A stretch of 64,000 bases of DNA from Eledone cirrhosa (Eukaryota): contig OZ024742.1 of assembly GCA_964016885.1 (NCBI GenBank), positions 213,094,001 through 213,158,000 on the forward strand, in the 5' to 3' direction. This document shows positions 7,297 through 42,268 of this stretch, in pieces. Position 1 is the stretch's first letter, and each line of letters begins with the position of its first letter. A program made the translations under genes and the position numbers. The notes under the pieces were generated by a model. It searched no databases, was not told where the DNA came from, and saw only the letters and a program-made list of their open reading frames with translations.

Positions 7297-7760
7297 GCAA
7301 AAGTTTTATTTAAAATTGTTGGGTTACAACAAGTAAATATTTTTTAACTGATATAAAGCACTCGACAAGTTTTTGGAGTAGATATACGATATTAAACAAA
7401 TGGAAACTATATTTATAAAACCATATTTATTTCATTATACATATTTCAGGGATACCATATTAAAAATATGGCATGCCTTCGTCAGATAAAATACAATATA
7501 TAACCAGTTTTATAAATAATTTTGACGTACCATAAATATAGCGACCATTAAGGTAGCTATATTTATGGTCGCTATATTAATGGTCGCTATATTAATGGTC
7601 GCTATATTTATGGTACGTCAAAATTATTTATAAAACTGGTTATATATTGTATTTTATCTGACGAAGGCATGCCATATTTTTAATATGGTATCTCTGAAAT
7701 ATGTATAATGAAATAAATATGGTTTTATAAATATAGTTTCCATTTGTTTAATATCGTATA
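7297..7760 (-). mobile_element. Non-coding PLE pLTR fold-back element, family A
   Basis: Inverted arms at about 7382-7551 and 7590-7760, an unpaired tail at 7297-7381, (TA)n on both sides and an HHR in each arm. Homologous to 22616-22934. Confidence 0.8.
7644..7720 (+). ncRNA. Type I hammerhead ribozyme (mirror copy 7423-7499 on -)
   Basis: Stem I ATATTGTATTTTAT / ATGAAATAAATAT; CTGACGA; about 13-bp stem II; GAAA-TATGTA-TA cleavage site. Confidence 0.75.
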
Positions 7761-8209
7761 TATATATATATATATATATACATATATATATATATATATA
7801 TATACACACACACATTCACCACAGAGTAAGGAGTTAGGCAACAGGCCAGTGACCTTAGTCTAGATAGTGTAAATGTAAATGTGGTGGTGGGGAGATAGTG
7901 TAGACGTTATTGTGGTGGCGGCGAGCAGTGAGATGTATCTAGTTCATTTATCCGTTTTCTTCTCTTTTCAAAATTTAAATTTTATCCATGTTATGTTGGG
8001 ACGTAAGTAAATGTAAAAATGTGAATAAAGATTGCTCTGGTAAAATATATGAAAATATTTGTGTAACTTCCACAACTTCTGTCAGGATATTTCCCGAGTC
8101 TAGTGAGCAAAAATTTTGTTGTATTTTGATCTTTCAGAATACAAAAATTAATCAAAACTTACCCCACGAAAAGATAGCGTGTTTTGTCCGAGCATACATA
8201 CATACATGA

Positions 8210-8435
8210 GGATTGCAGTGTCTTCACAGACGATTGCCGTCTCTTATTGATACTTCGTTATCATCCCATCTGCGTTGTAGATGACTTTGTAGGTCAGTTG
8301 TAGATCTGCATGGTTTACGATGCATGTGACAGAAGAGAGTTGCGCTTTCCACAGGACCGGTGGTGTCATCCTGTGAGACACAATTTTGATGTGCCACCAT
8401 GTGTCTTTTTAGTCCGGAACTAGTTCTACACACTT
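8210..8435 (-). mobile_element. RTE LINE 3' end fragment
   Basis: C2H2-like remnants (CRTSSGLKRH..H; C...KPCRS..L.SH) followed by a short UTR and a (TATG)n tail. Confidence 0.55.
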
Positions 8436-8659
8436 ACATACATACATACCTACATGTATGCACATAACAGACGAGGTTCTTTAGTGAATAGGTTGGTTGG
8501 TTAGAGGTTGCAATCTTCAAAAACAGAATAGAGTATACCTAACATTGTAATAATATACCTGATACTGCCTTCCATACACACACATCAGTGTATAGAATGA
8601 CAGTTGGTTGACAGAAAGCATAAAGTTTCGAACTGTATAAGAGGGTCTAAATTAAGTAC

Positions 8660-8875
8660 TCTGCTGTGAAGTCCGGTATTTAAATTAAGAATTACGTCTA
8701 GAAAGTTTACTACTTTAAGATTGTATTTGTACGTTATTTTTAGACCCAGTTCACTAAAAGATTTTCTAATGTTTTTCCGTAGCCTTTCAAGATGTTGGTT
8801 ATTTAAGTTATTAACTAATAAGAGCCCGTCATCTCTATATATTCCCCCCTGTAGATTACTAAATTTACCATGTTT
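8660..8875 (-). mobile_element. PLE (Naiad-like) RT fragment
   Basis: GGIYRDDGLLLV..VNFLDVILNLNTG is closely similar to part of ORF 38475..39899. Confidence 0.85.
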
Positions 8876-9032
8876 GGATAAAGACGTATCCACAACGCAC
8901 AGTCAAGAACATACACAGTAAACTTTACAGTTAGAAGCTCGTACAATTTCCCAGCACTTTTTACATACGTTGTCATCAACAGAACAAATTATTCTAGATC
9001 GAGAACATAATTTCATCATTTTACAGCTTACT

Positions 9033-38411: not shown

Positions 38412-40411
38412 GACGACCTTAAAAACACCAAAGGAATTGTAGTAAAAGCGGACAAAACATCAAACCTGTATACTATGGATTGCACTACATACAACAACTT
38501 CATTCGAAAAGAATTACATAAAAAATATAGAAAAACGAATGAAGTAACTCTTAAGCACATCAATGATGAGGCATGCGAAATAGTGAAAAATCTCGGAATC
38601 GAAGATAGGACAGGACCACTCTTACCGGCGGTACCCACCTTCAATCTTAAGGACCATAAGGTAAACTTTGATAATGTCCCTAAAATTAGATTAATCTGCC
38701 CCTCTAAATCAGATATAGGTAAAATAAGCAAATATATCTTAGATAGAATCATCCCCCAAATTAAGGCTAAGGTTAACATTAAACTCTGGGGGAAGACCCA
38801 AGAAGCAATAAGATGGTTTAATAGCATTAGCAATAAGAATAAATCTAAGTTTATCCAGTTTGATATCGATGAATATTACTCATCGATATCACCTGAAACT
38901 TCGAATAGAGCCATTAAGTTTGCTAAGGATAACTCTGACCTTACAAACGATGAAATTAAGATTATATTAGAAGCTAGGAAAACTATAGTCAAATTTGAGA
39001 ACAGTTATTGGTTACGTAAAGATAGACCCACTAACTTTGACATAACAATGGGCTCTAACGATTCAGCGGAAATAACTGATATTGTGGGGTTATTTATCAC
39101 CTTTAGACTCCAGGAAAATTTCAGCAATCTCCACGGCGGAATATACCGCGACGATGTTCTCCTCCTAGTTAAAAACCTAAATAACCAAAAACTAGAAAAA
39201 CTACGCAAAGATATAAAAAAACTACTACTCGAAATAGGACTAACTATAACATATGAATACAACCTTAAAGTAGTTAACTTCCTGGATGTCACACTCAATT
39301 TAAACTCTGGTCTGATTAAACCGTTTCATAAATTGAATGAAAATCTCAAATACGTAAATGTTGGGTCTAACCACCCCATCTCTATAATTAAATCTATCCC
39401 TAAAAATATTTCCCTTAGAATCTCGGGTCTATCTTCTAACATACAGGTATTTAAGGAACACGCCGAGTACTACGATAACGCCCTTAGTAAAGCAGGCTAC
39501 CTCAACAAAATAGAGTATATAGATGGGAACAATCAAAACACCCAAAATATATCCCACATAGGTAGATATAATAACACAACACCAAACCACACTTACTACC
39601 ATAGTATGCACACCAGTAAACCAACAAACAAAACTAATAGAAAGCGATGCAAAGAGTACTTATGGTATAACCCCGAATACAATAGTTCCATTAGTACAAA
39701 TTTACCAGTACTCTTCTTTAAAATAATTAAGAGACATTTTCCTACATCACACACATACCACAAAATCCTAAACCCTACCACTATAAGACTGTCATACTCT
39801 ACAGCGTTAAACCTTGAACAACACATAAAAAAGATCAATACTAGAAGGTTAAACGAAAACACTAAAAACTTAAGTACAAAGAACACAAAAAAACAGTAGA
39901 CAATACACTACAGAACATAAATAAACCACACCTAAGTTCGTCCGCAATACTACTCCAGAGAAAACCCAACGTACACAACTGTAACTGCACCTATCCTGAC
40001 AACTGCCCCCTCGGCAATAACTGCCTGGAAAAAAAAATTATTTATAAGTGTACCATTAAATCCGGAGGCAACGAGTGGTATTACGTGGGATCAACGGCAA
40101 CATCGTTTAAATCTCGATTATATAGGCATTCTTACTCAATAAAACACCAGAGCCAAAGAAATGTAACAACTTTAGCAGAAAAAGCTTGGACGCTCAGGGA
40201 TAGCGATCAAAAGTTTACTCTAAAATGGGAGAAATTAGCTAAAACCCAAAGCTTTTCCAGGAGCCAAAATTTCTGCAAATTGTGTAATCTTGAGATTTAT
40301 TACATAATCACACACAAGAAGAAATTGCTGAATAACAGAATTGAACGAACATTATTCTGCCGTCACCGAACTAAAACCCTTTTTTCCCACTACAAGCCGA
40401 ATATTACATAA
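38412..40411 (+). pseudogene. PLE RT + GIY-YIG endonuclease, 5'-truncated, disrupted near 39899
   Basis: LKDHK, RLICPSKS, QFDIDEYYSSI, TMGS.DSAE, GIYRDD, NFLDVTL; CNC....CP...NC; IIYKC..YYVGSTAT.FK.R. Confidence 0.9.
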
Positions 40412-41320
40412 AAGAGGGACATCCCCCCAACTATATAAACCTCAATCTAGTTAGAAAAATATAAAAACAATCTCTTCTCAACATATATATGTATATTAAT
40501 AACCTCAAATTACCACACTAATAATGGAAAGATATGCTGATGAGAATAGGTACAAAAATGCGATAATGAATGTGTCTAAAAGCGACCATAAGTATGTATA
40601 TATATGTGAAAATGTATATAAATAAGTAAATATATATATATGTTTGATGTGTATAGTTAGATGTAAGTGTATTCATGCATTAAAGTGCTTATATATATAT
40701 ATATATATATATATATATATATATATATATATATATATATATATATATATATATATATATATATATATATAGATATATATGTATATGTATATATATACAC
40801 ATAGACTAGAGTATGTATGTATATATGTGTGTGTCTATACGTGTGTATATAAAGATAAGTTGAGTATAAAAATGTATACACATGAACGCGTATGTATGTA
40901 CATGAATACATGTGTGTATATATATGTATGCATGTGTATATGTATGTAAGTATGAACATGTTACTATGTGAATGTGAGTATATGTATTTTGTAGAGGTGT
41001 GCAAATATGTTTGTGTGTGAATGCGTGGGTGATAGGATACGTACACTTGAAAGAAAAATTTAAGTCTGAATGTTAATTAAGTGCAAACACAAAACCAACC
41101 ATGCATATCTTTACTATCTCTAATCCTTCTATAGATTTAGAAAAATAACCAATAATATATTCTATAAAAATGTCAAAACAACAGATGGGAATCTAATTAC
41201 TCACTGCCACCAAAAATTCTCACTGCTATCAAAAAACCACTCCCTCAACTATTCTTCTAACAACTTCATCCCTCCCTCCTAATATTCTCTATAAAAACCA
41301 AACAGGTCCTCAGTAATATT

Positions 41321-41364
41321 ATTCTGATGAAATGACAGTAAATAATAACATTGAAATATTGAAT
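41321..41364 (+). ncRNA. Hammerhead-like motif in pLTR (mirror about 37390-37433 on -)
   Basis: ATT-CTGATGA-AATG...CATT-GAAA-TAT-TG-AAT. G at position 17 may block cleavage. A second half motif GAAA-CACGTG-TC lies at 41423-41434. Confidence 0.5.
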
Positions 41365-41605
41365 GTCTGCGTAACTAATACGTTGTAGATAGCAGCTGTT
41401 TTCAGGTTATGTAACTGTTATAGAAACACGTGTCAATAAATTCCTTTCAACTAAACTGTATCCATTCAAATCTTTCTATTTTTCTCCGGATTACTTTTGG
41501 AACTACAACTGGAACCGTCGAGCAAACTCTACGTGAGCTGTCAATCTACTCTGTGTAATATTTATATTACAACACAACGGAAAATACTGTATATATATAT
41601 ATATA

Positions 41606-42268
41606 TAAACAATTAAGTTAAAAATGTACATCTACATATGCATACTGAAATACTAGTGTGTATATGAATACACACACGTATACATATGTAGGTGTACCAA
41701 GTCTTTCACTGGTCGCTTTACAGTGAGCGGCCCAGCTATTCTGTATGTAAACACACAGACAAACCGGTTTTTAGAGTCATACTGGTTTTTCGGGGGAACA
41801 CCTTCCCCCTATTCTCCAGAAAGCCAGACAAGGAATATTGAACTAGTTTCGTTGTTGTTACAACTCATCAGCAATATTTACCTATCTACCGGCCTTTCTG
41901 GAGAATTGTGAAAGGCCGGTAGATAGGTAAATATTGCTGATGAGTTGTAACAACAACGAAACTAGTTCAATATTCCTTGTCTGGCTTTCTAGAGAATAGG
42001 GGGAAGGTGTTCCCCCGAAAAACCAGTATGACTCTAAAAACCGGTTTGTCTGTGTGTTTACATACAGAATAGCTGGGCCGCTCACTGTAAAGCGACCAGT
42101 GAAAGACTTGGTACACCTACATATGTATACGTGTGTGTATTCATATACACACTAGTATTTCAGTATGCATATGTAGATGTACATTTTTAACTTAATTGTT
42201 TAAGCGTCAGTCATACAAAAGTGAGTTACAAACGAAACGAAATTTAATTTCGTTTCGTTATTTGTTTT
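41606..42268 (+). mobile_element. Non-coding near-perfect palindromic HHR element, family H
   Basis: 293-bp arms at 41606-41898 and 41910-42202 with one visible mismatch, an 11-nt spacer, a 66-nt tail with a hairpin, and (TA)n flanks. Confidence 0.88.
41930..41974 (+). ncRNA. Canonical minimal type I hammerhead ribozyme (mirror 41834-41878 on -)
   Basis: AATATTG-CTGATGA-GTTGT/AACA/ACAAC-GAAA-CTAG-TT-CAATATT: 7-bp stem I, 5-bp stem II and a palindromic stem III loop. Confidence 0.9.

Follow-up and report, generated by a model that had tools for sequence, protein, structure and literature searches.

Endonuclease-positive Penelope-like elements (EN+ PLEs) have a published insertion footprint, namely a truncated copy, an inverted copy and a tail, and a passage of the same account calls the origin of the tail and of the inverted copies undefined (Craig 2021 PMC8557442). 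A PLE protein studied in purified form cleaves both strands and extends them; its two internal start sites delimit the tail, and a dimer is predicted for it (PMC11167929; Frangieh 2024); published PLE tails measure 30–40 nt. Pairs of minimal PLE hammerheads on opposite strands, 100–700 bp apart, have been attributed to truncated PLEs (PMC4209133, Cervera and de la Pena 2014). Metazoan non-LTR retrozymes were described with units of 170–400 nt (PMC7229834, Cervera and de la Pena 2020) and, in a preprint, with units of 51–972 bp and a kinship to the PLE pLTR (Li, Clavereau, Pollet 2026 bioRxiv 10.64898/2026.07.22.740005). They are proposed to be moved by PLEs (PMC7229834; 10.64898/2026.07.22.740005).

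The window analysed here is a stretch of 64,000 nucleotides of the Eledone cirrhosa genome, in which a sequence-only reading had described one system of short, non-coding, palindromic, hammerhead-bearing retroelements. The plan of these inserts is mostly explained as the known PLE insertion footprint rather than as a new system. Four of the five inserts probably represent short terminal pieces of PLEs from three coding families, and the fifth a piece of a 468-bp tandem retrozyme, all being likely products of a PLE enzyme priming at two sites, A and B, in (TA)n.

Five mirror-image inserts and their families

The features of the window are given below by coordinates and strand.

7297..7760, minus: E1, short insertion from a PLE family that is coding and carries Hydra-clade motifs; tail 7297–~7382, on the left as the element lies on the minus strand; arms 7383–7557 and 7586–7760, 98.3% identical, spacer 28
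7428..7493, minus: type I hammerhead of the E1 direct arm (CUGACGA, long helix II, 3-bp helix III)
7650..7715, plus: type I hammerhead of the E1 inverted arm (relaxed scan)
14160..14797, plus: E2, short insertion of a coding PLE family (RT and GIY-YIG with CCHH-type cysteines); arms 14160–14439 and 14479–14758, 99.3% identical, spacer 39; tail 14759–14797 (39)
14510..14545, plus: E2 hammerhead-like motif, core CAGUUGA(U); mirror copy at ~14373–14408 on the minus strand
14892..15100, minus: second short copy of the E3 family, non-palindromic, hammerhead at 15041–15078; missed by the sequence-only reading
16066..16334, minus: E3, short insertion from a coding PLE family, the third; tail 16066–16127 (62, on the left); arms 16128–16212 and 16252–16334, 96.4% identical, spacer 39
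16205..16242, minus: single E3 minimal hammerhead, U3–A8 core UUGAAAA, spanning the spacer
21041..21587, plus: E6, a second tandem hammerhead repeat without ORF (~430 bp), present as 1.3 units in (TA)n and related to E5; likewise missed
22616..22934, plus: E4, an older member of the E1 family, with an inverted arm of 54 bp, a direct arm whose one hammerhead (~22737–22802) is weakened, and a tail
37277..41589, plus: the same plan at kilobase scale; inverted repeats 37277–38390 and 40359–41476, a broken RT-endonuclease frame (38406–40411) between them, tail to 41589
41606..42271, plus: E5, partial copies, placed head to head, of the 468-bp unit of an ORF-less tandem retrozyme; arms 41606–41898 (site B end) and 41910–42202, 99.7% identical, spacer 11; tail of 69 to 42271 (site A)
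41834..41878, minus: type I hammerhead of the E5 inverted arm (Rfam and relaxed scan)
41930..41974, plus: type I hammerhead of the E5 direct arm (CUGAUGA, palindromic helix III)

All five mirror-image inserts are present, with arms 96–100% alike, a tail of 39–89 nt and (TA)n on both flanks; the short spacer claimed for the shared plan does not extend to E4, in which 122 bp separate arms of only 54 bp and the tail reaches 89. They belong to four families, as had been read, E1 and E4 being one (89% over 244 bp). The inserts themselves are indeed ORF-less, but three of the four families have RT and GIY-YIG coding sequence upstream in other copies. A link to PLE machinery is supported. Because those three families run upstream into coding PLEs, E1–E4 are taken as PLE end-pieces; the earlier term pLTR-only products suits them, and non-autonomous element suits E5.

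Families, parents and (TA)n targets are direct observations. For E1, an endonuclease frame lies upstream in 8 of 30 loci, and the parent L201 has a 750-codon frame with the tail directly before the ORF; this frame has no match in Pfam or PDB and aligns to that of L207 (E 1e-5), with Y-Y-G, R, E and N retained. L207, the E2-family parent, matches RVT_1 (E 1.3e-10) and, below the cut-off, GIY-YIG (E 5e-4). The E3-family parent L217 matches GIY-YIG (E 6.9e-6), and its ORF starts immediately after site A. In both L201 and L217 the pLTR is repeated at the ORF start as a partial tandem, the end of the tail being followed by the ORF start; E2 copies were fetched without their 5′ end, and the repeat is thus seen only for these two parents. 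The short E1 query returned mostly diverged relatives with unreliable alignment ends and was left out of the 5′ claim.

By its motifs, the E1 parent may be placed in the Hydra clade (Craig 2021), with which it shares DKT, an RW motif, the CxCX5C linker, the lack of a CCHH cysteine pair, CxxC and CxH near the end, a canonical type I pLTR hammerhead and a (TA)n target. It differs from that clade in carrying RWR (in L201) instead of RWK and in a unit of ~4 kb against <3 kb; the first linker cysteine is changed in L201 yet present in L114, L118 and others. As far as the excerpts of the EN+ PLE accounts go (PMC8557442, PMC3846280, PMC11167929), the E1–E4 families resemble these elements in the head-to-head inverted copy, the tail bounded by two RT starts, the (TA)n target, the pLTR hammerhead (type I in E1 and E3), the pLTR running into the ORF start and the C-terminal GIY-YIG. 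The tails of E1, E3 and E5 (62–82 nt) exceed the published range.

In a relaxed type I hammerhead scan the window gave 7 cores, where 20 block shuffles averaged 0.05, and five of the 7 lie within the inserts (two in E1, one in E3, two in E5). The claim that each insert holds a minimal hammerhead stands for E1 and E5, where the core is canonical in both arms, and for E3 with its known U3–A8 variant; it falls short because the E2 core is non-canonical and E4, with one copy, the canonical core CUGAGGA and a mismatched, weak stem II, fails the scan. Rfam scores E5 alone among the inserts (Hammerhead_HH9, E 3e-6, 38.6 bits, below the gathering score of 52). Strong Rfam miRNA matches were rejected, since they lie under gathering scores and such models match any long hairpin. 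Short-window folds of the hammerheads gave z from −2.0 to +0.3, which is not significant.

The E2 motif keeps helices I–III and GAAA, but CAGUUGA(U) replaces CUGANGA, so that the pLTR hammerhead departs from the type I core at positions 4 and 6. This core occurs in 87 of the first 100 matches listed of 2,734 genome matches, and the canonical core in none of those listed. A weak palindromic helix III, the U3–A8 variant of E3 and the extra base after A9 of E2 are all found among published minimal hammerheads, whereas the family-wide A at position 4 and U at position 6 are absent from the variants in the main text of that paper (PMC4209133). A literature search found no account of a hammerhead with U4A or A6U. 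A 2017 paper on PLE hammerhead variants may cover the E2 core. The 468-bp unit of E5 has a longest stop-free frame of 84 codons and the core CUGANGA in 57 of 58 motif matches; in the genome, A-ends running exactly into TA number 1,954, and exact junctions between units number 6,101.

E5 and E6 are retrozymes, i.e., ORF-less tandem repeats with a type I hammerhead in each unit; the E6 hammerhead pattern, which was too strict, matched 1 of 30 loci. Folded as a circle, the E5 unit reaches −162.7 kcal/mol against −99.5 ± 5.3 in 60 shuffles (z −11.9), and such strong circular self-pairing, together with the tandem ORF-less unit, the single type I hammerhead and the coexistence with PLEs, is shared with metazoan retrozymes. 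The unit length lies above the 2020 range (PMC7229834) and inside that of the preprint (10.64898/2026.07.22.740005). E5 insertions also bear the PLE footprint, with two fixed ends, a tail, an inverted arm and (TA)n, which is described in neither retrozyme paper; the word "inverted" occurs 0 times in PMC7229834. The earlier contrast of retrozymes as tandem rather than palindromic thus breaks down, the E5 family being both. In contrast to the retrozymes of Li 2026, E5 has no sequence link to a PLE pLTR among the PLE ends compared here: its tail matched none of 16 ORF-start and 112 ORF-end PLE regions, a set that is not genome-wide, except where E5 itself lies nearby.

Fixed outer ends and clustered inner ends

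Inverted loci make up 25 of 30 in E1, 12 of 30 in E2 and 7 of 16 in E3, with tails of 82, 36–43 and 62 nt, respectively. Two fixed outer ends recur in all four families, site A for one arm and site B for the other, as read directly from the loci. The inverted arm stops at B in 24 of the 25 inverted E1 loci and 11 of the 12 in E2, A plus B are found in 7/7 for E3, and the rule holds in 19 of 21 inverted E5 insertions; the E2 locus L064, with two A ends, is an exception. The locus queries contained the tail, and B/B insertions are thus outside the sample.

Each arm may carry sequence absent from the other (L035, L056, L084, L267, L277): the arms of L035 end at −348 and −515, and those of E5 at unit positions 91 and 107. 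Neither arm is therefore a copy of the other. Variant sites are common to the two arms of one locus more often than to copies of different loci in E1 (15/80 against 250/4,939), E2 (27/113 against 479/9,336) and E5 (51/191 against 139/16,332), and hardly so in E3 (4/29 against 165/1,677). The majority of variant sites are not common to both arms, and arm-to-arm gene conversion could raise sharing. Many near-perfect hairpins occur among the insert copies.

Inner ends pile up in E1 and E2, again a direct observation, and in both families they do so at an initiator-like site upstream of the ribozyme. In two E1 subfamilies, 22/30 and 16/30 arms stop inside an 18-base stretch, the adjoining 61 bases holding 1 and 2; the E1 site has TTCACT with an RGWYV motif at +28. 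Direct reading of 60 E2 loci placed 9 of 59 arms within 3 bases, 45 of 59 reading through the site, which has the downstream motif at +27, one base off. In the short-query E2 set, 8 of 27 ends fall in 12 bases (p at most 0.0004, exponential null); the test is sound only for this set, and full-length queries, which depend on the null scale, were unused. The 18-mer counts flanking the E2 pile-up (590 against 674) were dropped as confounded by subfamily variants. The E3 pile-up is weak (5/15, p 0.02 or 0.65 depending on the null) and lacks the +28 motif. A literature search on the newt satellite octamer promoter confirmed nothing.

Proposed two-site priming and competing explanations

The end positions are best read as the result of priming at two internal RNA sites, one for each DNA end, followed by synthesis that runs off the 5′ end of the RNA. 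A PLE enzyme would cut both strands of a (TA)n tract, one DNA end priming at internal RNA site A and the other at site B, 36–82 nt upstream; each cDNA would be templated by RNA from one and the same source locus, and their head-to-head joining at a few microhomologous bases would yield a palindrome with a tail. The pLTR may double as the 5′ leader of the PLE mRNA, in which case priming at the leader A and B sites would copy 200–370 nt before running off, leaving SINE-sized stubs with no need of a separate mini-element. For E5, the RNA template, probably circularised by the ribozyme or left as an uncut multimer, would be copied in trans by a PLE enzyme, and on such a template arms could exceed one unit. 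LINE-1 twin priming likewise starts cDNA synthesis on the element RNA from the two ends of the target, with head-to-head joining of the products; here the primed stretches overlap and both starts are fixed, hence a palindrome instead of a simple inversion. A literature search found no account linking Penelope inverted copies to twin priming.

It appears unlikely that the inner-end pile-up is a reverse-transcriptase stall or a microhomology hot spot, with the stubs being ordinary truncations of 3′-primed copies. Four of nine E2 peak ends do adjoin (TA)n through ATAT, E1 centres often use TA and most E2 arms read past the site. However, in 4 of the 5 E2 ends at −365 the junction is with non-TA sequence, at one and the same base; a longer stretch of TA at ~−265 holds 1 of 30 ends, compared with 8 for −357 to −364; and E1 ends crowd immediately downstream of −279 but are almost missing immediately upstream, at an initiator-like site. 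Ordinary truncation, which the sequence-only reading had tied to PLE parents and random junctions, fits as to parents in three of four families, but the outer ends are fixed and the inner ends clustered in two families.

That the short palindromes form a separate, self-propagating non-autonomous class, each short copy keeping an internal promoter and being transcribed into more short copies, is quite improbable. In its favour, short copies are abundant and share a start site that retains a promoter-like motif downstream, E5 and E6 are genuinely non-autonomous, and short and long E1 sets differ (net 0.37%, 0/2,000 permutations). Yet the short E1 set was chosen by likeness to the window copy, its alleles occur also in 4 of 16 long copies, and both E1 subfamilies contain short and long arms. 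Neither the E2 set (23 short and 18 long copies, p 0.36) nor the E3 set (8 short and 25 long, p 0.15) splits by copy length, palindrome centres vary between copies, and inverted pairs span <200 bp to >3 kb. Given also the coding parents of three families and the published PLE footprint, the idea of one separate system of short elements is not supported.

Fold-back, in which a single cDNA, or an antisense template, serves as both its own primer and its own template, was proposed for bdelloid Penelope elements in an excerpt of PMC3846280 (Arkhipova 2013), and it suits the many E1 centres that are near-perfect hairpin turns and the variants shared by arms. It is very doubtful here, since a self-copy cannot give a tail to one arm and extra upstream sequence to the other, as in the five loci named above and E5, and it leaves the second fixed end at B in four families unexplained. 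Assembly or library fold-back artefacts are scarcely credible, as arms differ by a mean of 1–3%, their two distinct fixed stops recur across dozens of loci, and the A and B ends next to (TA)n as well as the unit junction are also present in contigs from other public runs.

Two-site priming can be extended tentatively. A dimeric PLE enzyme may load one RNA at two fixed sites and extend both ends of a (TA)n break together; leader copying would run off the cap and give ribozyme-bearing palindromic stubs, and copying of retrozyme circles would roll past one unit. The active E2 PLE family (>2,700 motif copies) would, as part of this proposal, keep an A4/U6 hammerhead that would represent a new, functional variant of the core or else show that cleavage can be dispensed with.

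Implications for PLEs and retrozymes

The movement of retrozymes by PLEs has previously rested on co-occurrence and pLTR kinship only; ~2,000 retrozyme insertions with a PLE footprint are added here, together with a one-A-one-B rule in four families. For this strict pairing and for the inner-end pile-up, no counterpart was found in the excerpts of the EN+ PLE accounts. The RNA starts are predicted at base level and are open to direct test in the existing in vitro PLE assay. If transcribed, the near-perfect hairpins could feed editing or small-RNA pathways. Should the two-site loading be true, a single rule would cover the tail, the inverted pLTR, solo pLTRs and the spread of retrozymes, in four unrelated families within one window.

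Inserts, coding parents and 5′ leaders

Five inserts with (TA)n on both sides, as proposed by the sequence-only reading, were all found in the window, alongside other repeated elements:

7297, minus-strand orientation: insert E1, arms 98.3% identical, tail 86 nt
14160: insert E2, arms 99.3% identical, tail 39 nt
16066, minus-strand orientation: insert E3, arms 96.4% identical, tail 62 nt
22616: insert E4, arms of just 54 bp, 100% identical, tail 89 nt
41606: insert E5, arms 99.7% identical, tail 69 nt
21041-21587: E6, a retrozyme family related to E5
16400-18050: 5′-truncated Penelope-like element (PLE), canonical minimal hammerhead near 17928
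18132-20510: internally inverted PLE copy (RT start on the minus strand, 18468-19250; rest on the plus strand), related to the E2 parent
1626-4500, 25086-28511 and 44373-47794: a LINE family (AP endonuclease, RT) in three decayed copies
678-1283: fragment of another LINE

Small palindromes or related pieces also lie beside (TA)n at 20599-20795, 33572-33739 (arranged tail-to-tail about a TA tract), 34056-34158 and 15188-15419, and a dispersed repeat of ~190 bp occurs more than 10 times.

The plan of the inserts is itself already published: PLEs are known as inverted truncated copies with a 30-40 bp tail (PMC8557442) and as head-to-head palindromes (PMC3846280), and hammerhead pairs occur on opposite strands 100-700 bp apart (PMC4209133). 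E4 is 89% like E1 and is an older member of the same family. Walking upstream from genome copies of each family leads to coding parents for E1, E2 and E3. For E1, a common endonuclease frame was reached at 8 of 30 loci; its parent (locus L201) has a 750-codon frame which finds no match in Pfam or PDB, aligns with the E2 parent, and contains DKT, a CxCX5C linker, CxxC, CxH and a GIY-YIG core without the cysteine pair, a motif set that fits the published description of the Hydra clade (PMC8557442). The walks from E2 (L082, L207) and E3 led to RT and GIY-YIG frames. The idea of one new system of short palindromic elements is thus contradicted, with coding parents for three families and a retrozyme for the fourth; what survives is their reading as products of PLE terminal repeats (pLTRs) or as non-autonomous elements, the families of E1-E4 having PLE parents and E5 being ORF-less.

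The tail lies directly 5′ of the ORF start in the parents L201 and L217, so the pLTR doubles as a 5′ leader. The same arrangement is present inside the window at 22970-24275, a palindrome with arms of ~300 bp whose right arm continues into a Hydra-type ORF start (RWK, DKT) at 23718. Between the tail-bearing end and the ORF start, L201 holds a short diverged echo (3526-3570) of the sequence following the other fixed end. No separation of short from long copies is seen for E2 (23 vs. 18, p 0.36) or E3 (8 vs. 25, p 0.15); for E1 the sets separate, the short set having been picked for likeness to the window copy, and short-set alleles are present in 4 of 16 long copies.

Predicted hammerheads

A relaxed type I scan of the window returned 7 cores, against 0.05 in shuffles: E1 and E5 account for four, one per arm, E3 has a single core, and the other two lie in none of the five inserts. 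The E3 core is U3-A8, a variant already described (PMC4209133). E4 keeps the core CUGAGGA with a damaged helix II, and E2 carries the following motif:

14510-14545: hammerhead-like motif with A4 and U6, a genome-wide family motif

Its core is CAGUUGA, and it retains GAAA, all three helices (I-III) and the additional base that follows A9. Among 2,734 genome matches, the first 100 listed include 87 with this core and none with the canonical one. The register of the motif is fixed by a related one at 33873 (minus strand), in the same frame and with a U3-A8 core. In Rfam, E5 is the sole scoring insert, under the gathering score. The minimal type I hammerhead once assigned to every insert is predicted in E1, E5 and, as a single variant, E3; E4 has a weakened form and E2 one with a non-canonical core.

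Inner and outer ends

Each family has a fixed outer end carrying the tail (site A) and another fixed end upstream of it (site B); negative positions count from A. Inner ends pile up in two families. For E2, among the first 61 of 674 exact 18-mer matches (60 regions; two with identical contexts dropped), 14 of 59 scored arms end at -355 to -376, nine of them at -364 to -366, with 8 in the next 80 bases upstream and 37 farther. For two E1 subfamilies (the first 30 matches out of 83 and 105, respectively, arms of one palindrome counted apart), 22/30 and 16/30 of the listed arms end at -262 to -279, 1 and 2 at -280 to -340, and 7 and 12 beyond. Both pile-up sites are found 80-90 nt 5′ of the ribozyme core, away from the cut site. 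That of E1 reads TTCACT and has RGWYV at +28, E2 has RGWYV at +27, and E3 has no motif at +28, with promoter-like consensus motifs as the reference. An Inr-like TCACT in a pLTR and an internal downstream element have been reported (PMC3846280; PMC2377424). The simplest reading is run-off: priming on the mRNA leader followed by run-off at the RNA 5′ end would yield many stubs of one size. An RT stall or a microhomology hot spot at the same positions is a less likely source of the pile-up. The direct arms in the window fall short of these sites, by 18 bases in E1 and 5-7 in E2, and the E3 and E4 arms stop earlier.

Outer-end pairing was examined at 30 (E1), 30 (E2) and 16 (E3) loci, with queries that included the tail, so that B/B insertions could not show up. 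In 24/25 E1 loci the end of the inverted arm falls at -81 to -85, and in 11/12 E2 loci at -36 to -43, the remaining E2 locus having two A ends; A is paired with -62 in all seven E3 loci. Evidence against a simple fold-back comes from L035, L056, L084, L267 and L277, where the B arm extends farther upstream than the A arm and the A arm alone bears the tail, so neither was copied from the other. Variant sites are shared more often between the arms of one locus than between loci in E1, E2 and E5, and hardly so in E3. A purified PLE protein, a predicted dimer, both cuts and extends the two strands and uses two internal start sites bounding the tail (PMC11167929). Priming probably takes place at both target ends, at A for one and at B for the other, with RNA of a single source as template, and the two cDNAs would then be joined via short microhomology. 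In E1 and E3, TA-rich bases follow both start sites; such bases could pair with the target. Artefactual palindromes are made very unlikely by arms that differ by 1-3%, outer ends constant per family and identical ends in other public runs. The inserts are real features, representing PLE families and retrozyme families that are new.

Retrozyme families E5 and E6

E5 is a portion of a tandemly repeated 468-bp unit whose longest frame does not exceed 84 codons and whose circular fold is computed to be very stable (z -11.9). The family is a retrozyme; exact matches in the genome number 1,954 for ends into TA and 6,101 for unit junctions. Retrozymes had been held to be tandem rather than palindromic, yet 21 inverted insertions occur among 28 distinct loci (two overlapping duplicates left out; L003 and L006, which look duplicated, retained). 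Nineteen of the 21 have ends at unit positions 464-468 (A) and 393-400 (B), one ends at 384 and one runs off its locus. The positions of inner ends vary widely, with many arms crossing the predicted cleavage site and the unit junction, a pattern that requires a circular or uncut multimeric template. Contigs of another public run also contain the unit junction, as well as the B end running into TA. One long array (G000:C1:5738486-5752027) holds ~30 units, all on the same strand; another (C1:30832004-30840872) is palindromic, with ~6 plus 13 units.

The E5 tail matches no PLE end among the loci examined. PLEs have been proposed as the mover of retrozymes (PMC7229834; bioRxiv 10.64898/2026.07.22.740005); the word "inverted" is absent from the 2020 paper (PMC7229834), and the accessible text of the preprint gives no description of E5-type ends. 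E6 has a ~430-bp unit (1,751 candidates) with its own two ends, at unit positions 429 and about 379, and is 66% like E5 across the tail plus the 80 bases that follow it. Just past site A, both share ATGCAAAT (L030 unit positions 33-40; window 21189-21196), presumably the octamer motif of snRNA-type promoters, associated with newt satellite 2; a literature search on the newt satellite octamer promoter gave no confirmation.

The value of these observations is carried by a two-site and run-off model that can be tested and, further, by a retrozyme with a PLE footprint.
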